This document shows positions 36,288 through 40,556 of a DNA stretch of 64,000 nucleotides, one piece after another (the first letter of the stretch is position 1; every line of letters starts with the position of its first letter). A model generated the notes under the pieces. The model did no database searches. It had not been told where the DNA came from and worked only from the letters and a program-made list of their open reading frames with translations. This DNA is from Candidatus Hadarchaeota archaeon (lineage in GTDB: Archaea; CAYQAE01; CAYVLA01). The stretch lies in contig CAZUNO010000009.1 in the NCBI GenBank assembly GCA_964621445.1, positions 1-64,000 on the forward strand. Direction: 5' to 3'. A program made the position numbers and the translations under genes.

Positions 36288-37220
36288 TTGTCCTCGCAGA
36301 ACATTCTGGTGGAGTCACACGGACATAGGACGCCATTCTCTAAGGGTATTCTTGCACAGTCCCTAAAGGCGGCTGGAATAGACGAGGCATCAGCCAACCG
36401 TATAGCTAGGAATATTGAGGGCCATCTTCTAGAGGAGGAGAAGTACAAAGTTCAGCGTAGAGAGATAAGAAAACTCGCAGTGGAGCACATTGAGTCCCTC
36501 ATAGGGGAGAGCGGGGCCGAGAAGTATTTGACCTGGCGTCAACTCCAGCATGGACGCGAGCCGATGGTCATTCTCATAAGCGGTGCCACAGGTGTAGGCA
36601 AGTCCACCACAGCAGCTCAGCTAGCCCATCGGCTGGGCATAATGCATGTGATAGGGACTGATGCGGTGAGAGAGGTCATGAGAAAGATCATATCTCCCGA
36701 TCTGATGCCCACTCTACACCTATCTTCCTACACGGCCTGGAAGGCGCTCAAGACACCTGGAACCGGGGGAAAGGACTCCACTGTTGCAGGCTTTGAAAGG
36801 CATGCAAAATATGTTCTTGTAGGGGTTGAGGCGGTCATAGAGAGAGCCCTGAGAGAGGGGCTCAGCATAATTATCGAGGGAGTGCACCTGGTACCGGGTT
36901 TCATACGTAAGGAGATAATGAACCGGCCCAACGTCGTATTGGTCGTTGTCACTGCCAGCGGGGAGGAGCAGCACCGGAGTCGCATGTATACAAGGTCCGA
37001 GTCGATAGCCACCAAGCGACCCGTTGATAGCTATATAAAGGAGTTCTCCAGGATCCGCACTATTCAGAACTATGTGGTAAAAAGGGCAAAGGAAAAGGAC
37101 CTCCTAATCATCCAAAACGACGCAATAGAGGAGACCATCGACAAGGTATTCGAAGAGGTAATGAGCCGAGCTAGAAAGATAGTCTTCGACAAGAAAACAA
37201 ATGAAAAGGAAGAGGACTAG
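36288..37220 (+). CDS. pgk2: 2-phosphoglycerate kinase (ATP-cone plus P-loop)
   Basis: PFSKGILAQSL ATP-cone, ISGATGVGKST, IGTDAVREVMR, IIEGVHLVPG. Confidence 0.9.
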   Translation: MSSQNILVESHGHRTPFSKGILAQSLKAAGIDEASANRIARNIEGHLLEEEKYKVQRREIRKLAVEHIESLIGESGAEKYLTWRQLQHGREPMVILISGATGVGKSTTAAQLAHRLGIMHVIGTDAVREVMRKIISPDLMPTLHLSSYTAWKALKTPGTGGKDSTVAGFERHAKYVLVGVEAVIERALREGLSIIIEGVHLVPGFIRKEIMNRPNVVLVVVTASGEEQHRSRMYTRSESIATKRPVDSYIKEFSRIRTIQNYVVKRAKEKDLLIIQNDAIEETIDKVFEEVMSRARKIVFDKKTNEKEED

Positions 37221-37948
37221 ACGAGCTCCTCTTCTACCAGATCCGGCTCCTCCGGACGCAGACCTTCCAGACCCTCTTCACCCTCAAGGCCTTCAACGCC
37301 TTCAATGGCTTCGCCCGGCTCGATTCCAAGGAGAGCGGCTTCTGCAGCTGCCCTTTCCCTGGCTTCCTCCTTCTTCCTTCGGGCCTCACGTTCCTCTTCC
37401 AGCTTCTCAAGTTCTGCTATTCTATCCAGCTTGGATTCGTCAACTTCCACGTACTCGATATCGCTGTGGCAAGGCATGGGGAGCTTCATTCTGGCCCTTC
37501 TGAGGGATTCGCGTGCTATGGATTCCTTATTCTCATAAACCCATACCGACATTAGCGGTTGTCCCTTCTGGACCCTTGCCGCACATCCAACGGGTCTGCC
37601 GAAGGAACCTCTCATTCCCGTCTGATATCTATCGGCTCCGGCCCCCGTGGCCATGGAGTTCTCCCTCAGTATGTGATGTGGATAGACCCTTATTTTGAGA
37701 TGGTAGCCCCACTTCTCGGTTGCCTTCATTAGGTACCTGTTGGCCATTACCCTTGATGCCTCGAGGGAGTTATGCCGGACTTGACCCATTTCATCGGCGT
37801 ACAGCGTTGCCTTTACGGGAAACTTCGCGGTTCTTGCCCCCATATCGAAGGTCACTATCTTCTTTCCGGGAATCCCGCTTATATACTCCTTTTTGGTATA
37901 GGGCCTTCCCTTCAACTGTCTATAGCATCTATTGGGTCTTACTGGCAT
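37217..37948 (-). CDS. rpl10e: 50S ribosomal protein uL16 (L10e) with acidic C-terminal extension
   Basis: RPNRCYR, RHNSLEASR, RVYPHHILREN, GAGADR..GMR.SFGRP. Confidence 0.96.
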   Translation of the reverse strand: MPVRPNRCYRQLKGRPYTKKEYISGIPGKKIVTFDMGARTAKFPVKATLYADEMGQVRHNSLEASRVMANRYLMKATEKWGYHLKIRVYPHHILRENSMATGAGADRYQTGMRGSFGRPVGCAARVQKGQPLMSVWVYENKESIARESLRRARMKLPMPCHSDIEYVEVDESKLDRIAELEKLEEEREARRKKEEARERAAAEAALLGIEPGEAIEGVEGLEGEEGLEGLRPEEPDLVEEELV

Positions 37949-38042
37949 GAACATCAACTCGATGAAATTATTCCCTAAACTACGGCCGGAAGCAAAGGTA
38001 GGTTTTCGCCATTTTAAATATTTTCACATCCAGGCCAGGTTT

Positions 38043-39221
38043 CTAATTGGGCAGGTCCCTCTGGGAGAGTATCTTCAAATCAGGCGGCTTCTTGGTGACG
38101 TTTCCTATCTTCGCACCCACAACATACCTTACATTAGCGACCGATCCAACGTCGATCAGCCTCTGGGTGACGATCCCGTCAAGGATAACCGCCATTACCC
38201 CTTCTGAGCCCTTGAAGGTGGAGATGAGCTTGGAGACGTCGACCTCGGCCATTACATCAAGTTCCTTGTCTAGGAGCTTGGCCTTTCGGGAACCCTGTAT
38301 CTCGTTGAATACCTCACTGAACTTCTTCATCTCGGAGCTATCTTCCCTTTTCTTCTTTTTACGCTGCTGGAAGTATTGATCTACTGAAATCCTGTTCTTA
38401 AGGTATTCGATTATCTGCTTTCTACTCATATCCTCGACGCTTTCTCCAGGAGGACCCTGGGCCACGTACGAGATGTCGGCAACCTGGAAGAGCTCCCTGA
38501 GAATGAGTTCTCCTCCCCTGTCTCCATCCACGAAAGCTATGGTCGTCTTCTTCTTCGACAGATTGGCTATCGACTTGGGAATGTTCGTCCCCTCTACCGC
38601 TATGCAGTTCTTGACTCCGGCCTTCAAAAGATTTAGAATATCCGCTCGGCCCTCCACGATTATCAGGGAGTCGGAATCCTTTATCCCGGGGCCGGCCGGG
38701 AGCTTCTCTCGGCCATACTTGGTTATCTCCCCCACCTCAAAGGACTGCTTTAGCTCGCTGCTAATCTCAGAGGTATCTATGGTGACGTCCTCGAATAGGG
38801 TGTTCAGAATCTGTTTGGCCCTTTCAACCAGAACTCTCCTCTTCGCCGCCCTGACGTCCTCGATCCTGAGCACATTTATCCGCGCCTCGCAGGGACCGAC
38901 CCTGTCCACCGTCTCCAGAGATGCGGCTAGAATTGCCGTATCTATCTTATCCAGGCTACTCGGAAGTCTAATAACCCCGGTAGAACGGCCGCCTCTGGAC
39001 TTTATCTCCGCCTCGATTCTTCCTATCCTGCCCGTCTTTAGCAGTTCCCTGAGATCCAGATCATCCCCGAGCAAGCCCTCGGTCTGGCCGAAAATGGCAC
39101 CTATGACATCGGGTCTCTCAACAACGCCATCGGTCTCTATCTGCGCATAGATTTCGTACTTAGTCGTCGACTCTGCTTGATCCTCGATATTCTTCTTATT
39201 CTTCTTATTCTTCTTTGACAT
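38043..39221 (-). CDS. dnaG: Archaeal DnaG (exosome-associated TOPRIM protein)
   Basis: GVVERPDVIGAIFGQTEGLLG, IVEGRAD, FVDGDRGG, LDGIVTQRL. Confidence 0.96.
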   Translation of the reverse strand: MSKKNKKNKKNIEDQAESTTKYEIYAQIETDGVVERPDVIGAIFGQTEGLLGDDLDLRELLKTGRIGRIEAEIKSRGGRSTGVIRLPSSLDKIDTAILAASLETVDRVGPCEARINVLRIEDVRAAKRRVLVERAKQILNTLFEDVTIDTSEISSELKQSFEVGEITKYGREKLPAGPGIKDSDSLIIVEGRADILNLLKAGVKNCIAVEGTNIPKSIANLSKKKTTIAFVDGDRGGELILRELFQVADISYVAQGPPGESVEDMSRKQIIEYLKNRISVDQYFQQRKKKKREDSSEMKKFSEVFNEIQGSRKAKLLDKELDVMAEVDVSKLISTFKGSEGVMAVILDGIVTQRLIDVGSVANVRYVVGAKIGNVTKKPPDLKILSQRDLPN

Positions 39222-39328
39222 GTGACCACCAAAATATCAACACAATTTACATTACTGGACTCGAAATGCGAAAGGAAAAGTACAGTAACCCAGGATGAAT
39301 TACCGACCACCTGTGGAATGAGCCACTA

Positions 39329-39607
39329 TCAGGACCCATCCGAGGGTAGATTTTCAATAACCCTATCAACTACATCTTCATTGATGTAGATTCGAACCAA
39401 TTTTCTCCGACTTCTTCTACCACGTACAATCTCGATATTTTTTGTACCAAATACCTTGTAAAGGATCCCGAGCAGCTCCCTGTTTGCTTTTCCCTTCTTA
39501 GCGGGTGAAGTTACCTTGACCTTTATTTCATCCTCCTTTCTTTGAATCGATGAACGAGCTGAGTTTGGCGAAACTCTAACTCTTACGAGCTTTTCATTTC
39601 TTCCCAT
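39329..39607 (-). CDS. DUF167 (YggU/UPF0235) family protein
   Basis: VRVSPNS, VKVTSPAKKGKANREL, IVRGRRSRRKLV. Confidence 0.9.
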   Translation of the reverse strand: MGRNEKLVRVRVSPNSARSSIQRKEDEIKVKVTSPAKKGKANRELLGILYKVFGTKNIEIVRGRRSRRKLVRIYINEDVVDRVIENLPSDGS

Positions 39608-39818
39608 GCTACTACGTCCGTTCCCCGCAAGGGGGGGGGGGGCGCCTGTAACCTTCTACACTAACTCCTGGGCTTCATCGTACGGGTTAATCCTCCCTCG
39701 ACCCAGATGTCCTCGTGGAAGGATATATCGGCGCCTCCCTGTTGCTATGCGGGGTTGTCCGCCAGATCATCGTCTTAGGATTGACCAGTAACTCTCCGTG
39801 GGACCCAAACGTATAGCA
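39607..39818 (-). ncRNA. Unassigned ~210-nt structured RNA or 5' leader of DUF167-dnaG
   Basis: Terminal stem UGCUAUACGUUUG/CGGACGUAGUAGCA (G.U pairs form only on the - strand); long arm GGGAGGCGCC...GGCGCCCCCC with a K-turn-like GA/GA; hairpin CCCC-UUGC-GGGG; own promoter. Confidence 0.7.
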
Positions 39819-39838
39819 ATATTACTATTGTTGCGTCC

Positions 39839-39855
39839 TATAAATAAGTTTTTCG
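39839..39855 (-). promoter_or_regulatory. BRE-TATA promoter for the structured RNA/DUF167
   Basis: The - strand reads CGAAAAACTTATTTATA, ending 20 nt before the 5' end of the stem. Confidence 0.75.
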
Positions 39856-39968
39856 TACGGATAAAAACCGCGCCTTCGCGAAATCCATGAAACAGGCCTT
39901 GAGGAAATTCCGAGGACCGGCATTCAAATCGGGAGATATATATCAGAAATGCCCTTAGTAGAGTTCCA

Positions 39969-40556
39969 GTGTTAACAAAATCGGTTATCAGGCGAAAGCT
40001 GGTACTGCTAGCCCTGGGAATCTACATGATTGGATTCGCCCTCGGAGTGGCGATGAAGCTCAACTATCCTGAAGCCGCCGGAATGATAGAGGACCAGATT
40101 TCAAGGATATCGGCCCAGTTCGAGGATATTGAGAGCCCGGTTAGGATCTACTCCAAGATACTTCTGCATAATCTGGCCGTTTGCGCCATAATGTCCTTTG
40201 CCGGCATAATATTCGCCCTTCCGCCCCTCTTCATTCTATTCATAAACGGTATTCCCCTTGGAATCGTTCTCTCCGGGTCGGACAAACCCTTATGGGTATT
40301 TCTCACCGCCATACTACCTCACGGGGTATTTGAGCTATCGGCCACCTTCATTGCCGGTGCTTTGGGAATCCTATTGGGGGTCGACGCCTTCCAGCTGATT
40401 CAGAACTGGATGAAGGGAGAAGGAGAAGCCTCCACGAGGATACTTCTCTCCGACCTCAGGAAGATACTCAAGGCATTTGCCCTGGTAATAATCCTTCTGG
40501 CCGTTGCCGCCGGTGTTGAAACCTTTCTCTTCTTCTTTTATCGGGCCAGCGCGTAG
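39969..40556 (+). CDS. SpoIIM family membrane protein
   Basis: ILLHNL, LFINGIPLG, ILPHGVFEL, AAGVET. Confidence 0.88.
   Translation: MLTKSVIRRKLVLLALGIYMIGFALGVAMKLNYPEAAGMIEDQISRISAQFEDIESPVRIYSKILLHNLAVCAIMSFAGIIFALPPLFILFINGIPLGIVLSGSDKPLWVFLTAILPHGVFELSATFIAGALGILLGVDAFQLIQNWMKGEGEASTRILLSDLRKILKAFALVIILLAVAAGVETFLFFFYRASA

Follow-up and report, generated by a model that had tools for sequence, protein, structure and literature searches.

Nature of the RNA encoded upstream of DUF167 and dnaG

In the 64,000-nucleotide (nt) stretch of a Candidatus Hadarchaeota genome analysed here (contig CAZUNO010000009.1, positions 1 to 64,000; hereafter the window), the minus strand carries a structured non-coding sequence immediately upstream of a DUF167 gene, which is itself followed by the gene of archaeal DnaG. 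The question raised by this locus is what kind of RNA, if any, is encoded there. The analysis indicates that it is very probably the gene of a box H/ACA guide small RNA (sRNA) with two hairpins, descended from the three-hairpin Pf7/Pab40/Afu4 RNA by loss of the first hairpin. It looks like an expressed RNA gene of a known kind and, judging from its sequence, its product most likely directs the formation of pseudouridines in 23S rRNA. An initial annotation, made from the letters alone, had proposed a novel non-coding RNA or a translational switch tied to DnaG, a proposal that is unsupported as stated given the homology to HgcG RNAs and the poor conservation of the start codon mask described below; it had also named an H/ACA-type guide as an alternative, and this is where the evidence points.

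Conservation, folding and covariation

A 231-nt stretch covering the RNA folds at -85.3 kcal/mol, against -71.5 +/- 4.8 kcal/mol for shuffled sequences (z -2.85; 2 of 200 shuffles fold as well). The predicted minimum-free-energy fold includes a 13-base-pair (bp) pairing of UGCUAUACGUUUG with CGGACGUAGUAGCA (39607-39620), the last A of which is the A of the DUF167 ATG. The conserved stretch spans about 39818 to 39607 on the minus strand: it begins at 39818 with UGCUAUACG..., 22 nt downstream of a putative promoter, and ends at the DUF167 ATG (39607).

In the following, G000 is the genome of the window, G001-G003 are genomes of the same family, G004 belongs to a sister family of the same class and G034 to another phylum; the phylum of G000 is represented by five species genomes in the collection searched. 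Matches were obtained by blastn in five of the 41 genomes searched. In G001-G003, about 215 nt of non-coding DNA are 77-79% identical to the window; the neighbouring genes are the same there and the promoter is conserved. The fifth match, to G034, is treated below. A covariance model built from the window RNA (R1) detects the RNA in four of the five genomes of the phylum, a judgement that does not extend to the dnaG locus of G004, since dnaG starts there 42 nt from a contig end. A metagenome scan with R1 gave seven further loci, with a full-length match in all 11 sources searched. Together these searches yielded a family alignment of eight distinct related sequences, which are close kin and not independent of one another.

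In the consensus of these eight sequences, 97.1% of the cells are paired (35-46% in slid controls) and 6 of the 51 pairs show double changes, which none of 500 shuffles matches. This consensus fold consists of two hairpins separated by ACA and differs from the fold closed by the 3' tail: the 5' end pairs with an internal strand, CGC(G/A)UAGCA, with a U-A pair in G000 where the other sequences have C-G. The window RNA is a real, conserved RNA gene. Two other candidates were rejected: a weak R1 match in G000 (C2:50322-50482, E 0.06), which is chance-like and has no Rfam match, and a contig in a bin labelled beta proteobacterium (L021), where an exact 19-base match to a conserved block comes with no match to the RNA model and is attributed to chance.

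Most of what the initial annotation had read from the letters was borne out, namely the structured RNA on the minus strand (39607-39855), the archaeal promoter elements, the stem closing over the DUF167 AUG, and a long arm with tandem G.A pairs and an internal CAUAGCA (39743-39749) as second partner of the 5' end, which are kept in the eight sequences. By contrast, two of the hairpins it had drawn, one with a GGUCA/UGAUC core and one of the form CCCC-UUGC-GGGG, are specific to G000 and not kept in relatives. It had also remarked that the signatures of signal recognition particle (SRP) RNA, RNase P RNA and tRNA are lacking; indeed, the SRP RNA (196.5 bits, C16:48115-48423) and the RNase P RNA (203.2 bits) were found elsewhere in G000, and no tRNA was predicted in the window by ARAGORN.

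Homology to HgcG-type RNAs

No Rfam family was matched in the window at gathering thresholds, nor at E <= 10 over 39300-40200. The lack of an Rfam match, on which the initial annotation had made novelty depend, is thus formally found, yet novelty itself is not upheld, since homology to HgcG (RF00064, an H/ACA sRNA that is called Pab40 in Pyrococcus abyssi) is shown indirectly by (i) the blastn match to G034, (ii) reciprocal matches of R1 to HgcG loci, (iii) the shared DUF167-dnaG context and (iv) strong joint covariation.

The match to G034 (58 nt, 77%, E 1.5e-4) involves hairpin 1 of the window RNA and falls in the second of the three H/ACA motifs of an HgcG match that scores 76.6 bits (E 2e-20), just under the gathering score of 77. 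Downstream of the HgcG RNA of G034, and on its strand, come the genes of DUF167 (88.3 bits), a small Toprim protein and DnaG, a context like that of the window. A search with RF00064 over 151 genomes gave matches in 36 at E <= 0.01, 12 of them above the cut-off. G004 has an HgcG match of 50.6 bits with three motifs, near a contig end, with DUF167 as first downstream open reading frame (ORF). Reciprocally, R1 matches 13 of 30 HgcG loci at E <= 1, in every case inside the HgcG match (best 40.6, 35.2 and 33.5 bits), and aligns end to end with HgcG motifs 2 and 3.

A joint alignment of the eight family sequences with 11 outgroup sequences (19 in all) has 93.5% of its cells paired, a value inflated by the alignment being guided by and fitted to the model, against 38-49% in slid controls; 46 of its 51 pairs show double changes, matched by none of 500 shuffles. 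The covariation that the initial annotation had proposed as a check is hence present within the family and with outgroups. All eight pairs of the first lower stem change fully between lineages, and the blocks GGUC(C), GAG, (C)GAUGA and CAACCC remain unchanged across phyla while the stems change. Motif 1 is missing in the window RNA; it is considered gone because the promoter abuts motif 2 (22 nt before it). On this sequence comparison, the window RNA is taken to be homologous to motifs 2 and 3 of Pf7/Pab40/Afu4-type RNA.

The likeness to the HgcG RNAs (Pf7, Pab40, Pho40, Afu4) includes the motif 2 blocks UUGGGUCCC, GAG, CGAUGA and CAACCC, the layout of motif 3 (guide, 6-7 bp stem, kink-turn (K-turn), GUUA guide, ACA), the places of the ACA boxes and K-turns, and the position directly upstream of DUF167-dnaG, which is shared by 8 of the 30 HgcG-type loci. 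The window RNA differs from them in having two hairpins and not three, an extra 8-9 bp helix around motif 3 and its ACA, a 3' tail whose sequence complements the 5' end of the RNA and one of the guides, and motif 3 guides altered together with a changed helix 69 sequence, and in being missed by the Rfam model. New, if modest, findings are the loss of motif 1, the helix around motif 3, the tail that covers the DUF167 start and complements the RNA itself, and the failure of the Rfam model to detect this RNA.

Anatomy as a probable H/ACA RNA

Comparison across the 8 and 19 sequences delimits two H/ACA motifs, A and B, composed of the following elements, all on the minus strand:

39743..39818: motif A (= HgcG/Pab40 motif 2)
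39810-39818 with 39743-39751: motif A lower stem, 9 nt, one A.C mismatch
39802-39809: motif A 5' guide, pocket strand UUUGGGUC
39795-39801 with 39759-39766: motif A upper stem, CCACGGA with UCUGG(C)GG, 7 bp, one bulged C
39793-39794 with 39767-39772 (CGAUGA): motif A K-turn with G.A, GA on the 5' strand and C-GAU-GA on the 3' strand
39752-39758: motif A 3' guide, pocket strand ACAACCC
39740..39742: motif A ACA box, directly after the lower stem, 14-15 nt from the pocket top
39647..39722: motif B (= HgcG/Pab40 motif 3)
39714-39722 with 39652-39660: motif B lower stem, 8-9 bp
39708-39713: motif B 5' guide, pocket strand AGGACA
39701-39707 with 39667-39673: motif B upper stem, 7 bp, ending in a G.U or G-C pair
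39692-39700 with 39673-39680: motif B K-turn, N-GA-G on the 5' strand and C-GAN-GA-A on the 3' strand
39661-39666: motif B 3' guide, pocket strand AGUUAG
39647-39649: motif B ACA, invariant, 2 nt after the stem, 16 nt from the pocket top
39730-39739 with 39637-39646 (span 39637..39739): family-specific outer helix, enclosing motif B and its ACA

The pockets measure 8/7 nt (A) and 6/6 nt (B), and the lower stems 9 and 8-9 bp. Both K-turns have tandem G.A, a 3-nt bulge on the 3' strand and a non-canonical stem that faces the pocket; in motif A, all 19 aligned rows carry GA on both strands of the K-turn (read by eye). The ACA of motif A is invariant in the eight family sequences, and most outgroup rows aligned there have ACA or AUA. 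In relatives, the 3' strand of the motif A upper stem reads UCCGU(C)GG. The suggestion of a K-turn bound by L7Ae, made in the initial annotation, would fit this H/ACA organisation.

The descriptor of archaeal H/ACA motifs given in PMC2377435 calls for 7 bp or more in the lower stem and for 5-11 nt on each strand of the internal loop. Both hairpins of the window RNA have such a lower stem and pocket, and their stems covary. For the distance between box and target, the same paper gives 14-15 nt and PMC7075261 gives 15 +/- 1 nt; the spacing of motif A (14-15 nt) fits both ranges, and that of motif B (16 nt) fits the second only.

The outer helix is kept in one metagenomic sequence (L018) through changes on both strands, and it is absent from outgroup RNAs such as L042. 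A drawing in which it forms the lower stem of hairpin 2, with the variable loop as pocket, was discarded, since the guide columns that it implies differ between family members and outgroups have no such helix. The alignment with outgroups (e.g. L042) indicates that the ancestral motif B is the inner hairpin.

The RNA also resembles the eukaryotic H/ACA small nucleolar RNAs of the hairpin-hinge-hairpin-tail type, in that each of two guide hairpins is followed by an ANA-type box. Unlike them, it has the archaeal K-turn/L7Ae feature and no ANANNA hinge consensus, and its two hairpins go back to the loss of one of three archaeal motifs.

Predicted rRNA targets and protein partners

The 23S and 16S rRNA genes of G000 were located, the 23S gene being at C17:12023-15055 on the minus strand. 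Convergent with the 23S gene, and about 120 bases away from its 3' end, is the RNase P RNA gene (C17:11560-11900, plus strand). A first strict H/ACA target scan with the pocket drawn by RNAalifold found no target in the G000 rRNA, and a second one over several pocket readings found weak sites only; because of these results, the pocket was redrawn from the outgroup comparison.

With the pocket redrawn, AACCC of motif A pairs with GGGUU (23S 2675-2679) and GGUC with GACC (2682-2685), leaving U2680 and A2681 unpaired. U2680 is the third U of the conserved GGGUUUAGACC stretch of the G000 23S rRNA. We take this stretch to lie next to the peptidyl-transferase centre, and U2680 presumably corresponds to E. 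coli U2586. Motif A can also be placed at U2648 in the A-loop, with 6+5 bp inside the pocket, UAC unpaired and 15 nt to the ACA. In motif B, GUUA pairs with UAAC (2007-2010) and GAGGA-CA with UG(A)UCCUC (2013-2020), with one bulged target base, so that U2011 and A2012 are left unpaired in helix 69. The targets predicted from these pairings are U2680 and/or U2648 for hairpin A, and U2011, perhaps also U2013, for hairpin B. Both sites are kept open for hairpin A because a single H/ACA motif can guide several sites, as stated in PMC2377435.

The A-loop and helix 69 sites are identical in G001-G003, and the U2680 stretch is matched exactly in G002 and G003; the exact pattern of that stretch gave no match in the 23S rRNA of G001. 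Within the family the guide blocks do not vary, and GGUC(C) and CAACCC persist even between phyla. The motif B guides of outgroups, GUUAC and GGGUCA, differ from those of the window family, and the helix 69 stem of the family (G000 23S 2000-2021) presumably differs from the usual archaeal sequence. This looks like a joint change of guide and target.

These predictions agree with what is published for homologues. By the rules of PMC2377435, the expected target of motif 2 in Pf7, Afu4 and Pho40 is the counterpart of position 2678 of the P. abyssi 23S rRNA, a pseudouridine in Haloarcula, and the target predicted here for the window RNA would be the same; U2648 is near the position that was first proposed for motif 2 of Afu4, according to the same source. 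In Haloferax sR-h45, as described in PMC7075261, the 5' stem-loop is responsible for pseudouridine 2605, located between helices 90 and 93, the 3' stem-loop for 1940 and 1942 in helix 69. The pockets of the window RNA, as predicted, are complementary to the two 23S regions reported for sR-h45. By analogy, its architecture and predicted targets correspond to those of sR-h45, which is described there as an RNA of some 200 nt whose two stem-loops each contain a K-turn and have an ANA box between them; the likeness is one of described architecture and sites. Two differences are apparent from the same description: sR-h45 has a linker of 56 nt between its loops, where the window RNA has only ACA, and the unpaired target configuration at helix 69 (UNUN in Haloferax) may not be the same.

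The genome G000 encodes Cbf5 (420.4 bits), Nop10 (78.7 bits) and L7Ae (98.7 bits), all above cut-off. In the mechanism that follows from this reading, the RNA would be transcribed from its own promoter, each hairpin would bind L7Ae at its K-turn, Cbf5-Nop10(-Gar1) would bind the lower stem and ACA box of each hairpin, and each pocket would base-pair with the 23S rRNA sequences that flank a uridine, to be converted to pseudouridine by Cbf5.

Assessment of the guide RNA interpretation

Several observations weigh against the interpretation as an H/ACA guide. (i) A search with RF00064 at E <= 0.01 gave no match in G000-G003 and its gathering threshold (77 bits) was not reached by the window RNA; homology thus depends on the indirect evidence, including the model-guided joint alignment. 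(ii) The upper stems are 7 bp long in both hairpins, outside the rule of 5-6 bp between pocket and K-turn stated in PMC2377435. Since outgroup homologues such as L042 have upper stems of 7-8 bp, this deviation is common to accepted members of the family. (iii) Motif B is irregular: its ACA is 2 nt off the stem, at 16 nt from the pocket top, and is enclosed by an extra helix. (iv) The guide-target pairings are short, with 5+4 bp for motif A at U2680 and 4+7 bp with one bulged target base for motif B, and the complementarity of motif A to U2648 is stronger than that to U2680, so that its target is ambiguous. (v) In a shuffled-guide control, motif A finds 2 sites against a mean of 2.4 (fraction 0.64) and motif B finds 3 against 1.0 (fraction 0.12); because shuffled guides find comparable counts, the target calls are supported by the sites known or predicted for homologues rather than by statistics. 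(vi) The equivalence of U2680 and U2011 to the published Pyrococcus and Haloferax positions is derived from context, similar numbering and recall, not from alignment, and should be read as presumptive. (vii) The Gar1-like ORF of G000 scores 26.6 bits, under the cut-off of 29.3. (viii) The tail-closed fold, which is the predicted optimum for most sequences, would hide the guide of motif A. This last point leads to the 3' tail:

39607..39628, minus strand: 3' tail, composed of GCGGGG (39623-39628) and CGGACGUAGUAGCA (39607-39620), overlapping the DUF167 start codon

Alternative readings of the RNA and of its tail

The stretch after the outer helix is variable, but two motifs in it, GCGGGG and (N)GUAGCA, are kept despite their position outside the H/ACA core. 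GUAGCA with its variable neighbours can pair with the 5' end in all eight sequences, over 7-13 bp, and GCGGGG, preceded by AC, can pair with CCCCGCGU, that is, with the 3' guide of motif A and part of its lower stem. These pairings suggest a cis-acting leader or translational switch, in which the 5' end pairs either with the internal CGCAUAGCA, leaving the start free, or with the 3' tail, sequestering start and tail, and which would control DUF167 and perhaps dnaG, either as the sole role of the RNA or layered on the guide RNA. The tail-closed fold is favoured energetically in G000 (-85.1 kcal/mol, vs -74.6 kcal/mol with the 5' end forced onto the internal strand) and can be drawn for the whole family, and changes at three places in G000 preserve both alternative pairings. 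Read-through into DUF167-dnaG is likely because no T-run of at least 4 lies between the RNA and the DUF167 ATG; the sRNA may also be matured from such a leader. The pairing of the tail with the 5' end is stronger than that of shuffled tails at <= 0.018 in five of the eight sequences (0.07-0.27 in the other three), and its pairing with CCCCGCG at <= 0.024 in four of the eight; these statistics are suggestive only, because the sequences are close kin and the partner strands nearly invariant.

Other evidence runs against such a switch. The AUG lies within the stem in only four of the eight sequences, the start of DUF167 in G002 being further downstream, and DUF167 is frameshifted and without a start in three of the eight (G001, L014 and L019), where the RNA and its tail are kept nonetheless. 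Moreover, the internal and 5' strands are almost invariant, so that the tail stems show no true covariation, the eight sequences do not provide independent tests, no ligand or protein sensor is evident, and in most lineages the trans-acting guide RNA to which the core is homologous has other neighbours. The pairing over the AUG exists but is not conserved as a mask of the start codon, and it is not needed to explain the conservation of the RNA. The translational-switch reading is unproven, and we consider it unlikely. In G001 (L002:1742-1948), DUF167 is broken and dnaG downstream is intact.

A combined scheme, which we also regard as improbable, would make the guide RNA the 5' leader of a DUF167-dnaG(-rpl10e) transcript and the tail its built-in antagonist. 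In the naked full-length transcript, the 3' guide of motif A and the 5' strand of its lower stem would be paired with the tail, so that neither the guide nor the DUF167 start would be accessible; the two-hairpin fold would be imposed, and the start codon freed, once Cbf5 and L7Ae bind or the transcript is processed. If this were true, expression of DUF167 and of the exosome subunit DnaG would be coupled to the assembly of the H/ACA ribonucleoprotein (RNP), and the linkage of the sRNA to DUF167 in seven archaeal families would point to a role of DUF167 in the H/ACA RNP or in rRNA maturation.

A third possibility is a relic derived from an H/ACA RNA, which would have kept its structure and the binding of L7Ae and Cbf5 without guiding, for instance as a chaperone of rRNA folding, or which would be decaying. 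Such a relic would agree with the short and irregular guide pairings, with the non-standard spacing and enclosing helix of motif B and with the loss of motif 1. It is very unlikely, given that the guide blocks do not vary in the family and have persisted between phyla, that the guides match sites reported or predicted for homologues, and that compensatory changes maintain the stems, which argues against decay. Finally, a new class of K-turn RNA unrelated to known families, to which the lack of any Rfam match at any threshold might have pointed, is extremely improbable in view of the reciprocal model matches, the HgcG motif 2 blocks, the synteny and the joint covariation.

Significance of the guide RNA interpretation

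Read as a two-hairpin H/ACA guide, the RNA is of an ordinary kind and does not overturn current knowledge. It adds an unannotated guide RNA to a sparsely sampled archaeal phylum, it reveals that the Rfam HgcG model misses diverged and shortened members of its family, and it leads to checkable predictions of pseudouridines close to the functional centre of the 23S rRNA. The recurrent sRNA-DUF167-dnaG arrangement is in addition a lead on the function of DUF167 and on the maturation of guide RNAs from mRNA leaders. The ends given here for the RNA are predicted, and it may be excised from a longer transcript extending into DUF167-dnaG.

Locus, promoter and homopolymer

The RNA is housed on the minus strand of a spacer of 361 nt between DUF167 and a divergent gene for a SpoIIM-family membrane protein. 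The features of the locus are:

39969-40556, plus strand: SpoIIM-family membrane protein gene, divergent
39839..39855, minus strand: putative archaeal promoter, with a B recognition element (BRE)-like CGAAAAAC (39848-39855) and a TATA box, TTTATA (39839-39844)
39631..39642, minus strand: C12 homopolymer (G12 on the plus strand), of unreliable or polymorphic length
39329..39607, minus strand: DUF167 (YggU family) gene, 92 amino acids (PF02594, 68.8 bits), the start of which overlaps the last base of the tail stem
38043..39221, minus strand: archaeal DnaG (Toprim) gene, 3' of DUF167
37217-37957: rpl10e/uL16, after dnaG

The promoter block AAAAACTTATTTATA is kept in all four genomes (G000-G003), and its flanks are not; its function as a promoter is predicted from the sequence. 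The length of the homopolymer, which the initial annotation had flagged for verification, differs between assemblies of the same or near-identical organisms, with values of 12, 9 and about 7. Indeed, in DNA contigs of other runs it is three letters shorter in one contig, it is five letters shorter with two substitutions in a near relative, and the contig from the best-matching run terminates within it; relatives have CUCCCAC at this site. The length given in the window is not to be trusted. The run is located in the tail, outside both H/ACA motifs.

Synteny of HgcG-type RNAs with DUF167 and dnaG

For 30 HgcG-type loci, the first ORF of at least 55 amino acids on the strand of the RNA, with its start between -60 and +350 of the RNA 3' end, was assigned to a Pfam family:

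DUF167: 6 loci
DnaG-type Toprim: 2 loci
Ham1: 4 loci
TRM5/TYW2: 3 loci
PIN_5: 2 loci
other families: 7 loci
no family: 6 loci

The DUF167 loci are L044, L045, L047, L049, L055 and L059, and the DnaG loci are L058 and L062; DnaG comes after DUF167 in L044, L045, L055 and L059. These eight loci represent six archaeal families, or seven with the family of the window. The start of DUF167 often lies within a few tens of bases of the last ACA/AUA box of the RNA. This linkage may hint at co-transcription and at a connection of DUF167 with the H/ACA RNP or rRNA maturation. A literature search on DUF167 together with DnaG gave, among the papers listed, no work naming DUF167.

Weaker HgcG-type matches (46-52 bits) were observed in one family (f25; L046, L048, L052 and L056) directly upstream of a gene of the Ham1 family (RdgB-like). 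In bacteria, the DUF167 gene yggU adjoins the Ham1-family gene rdgB, and the Ham1 and DUF167 contexts of these RNAs may be related.

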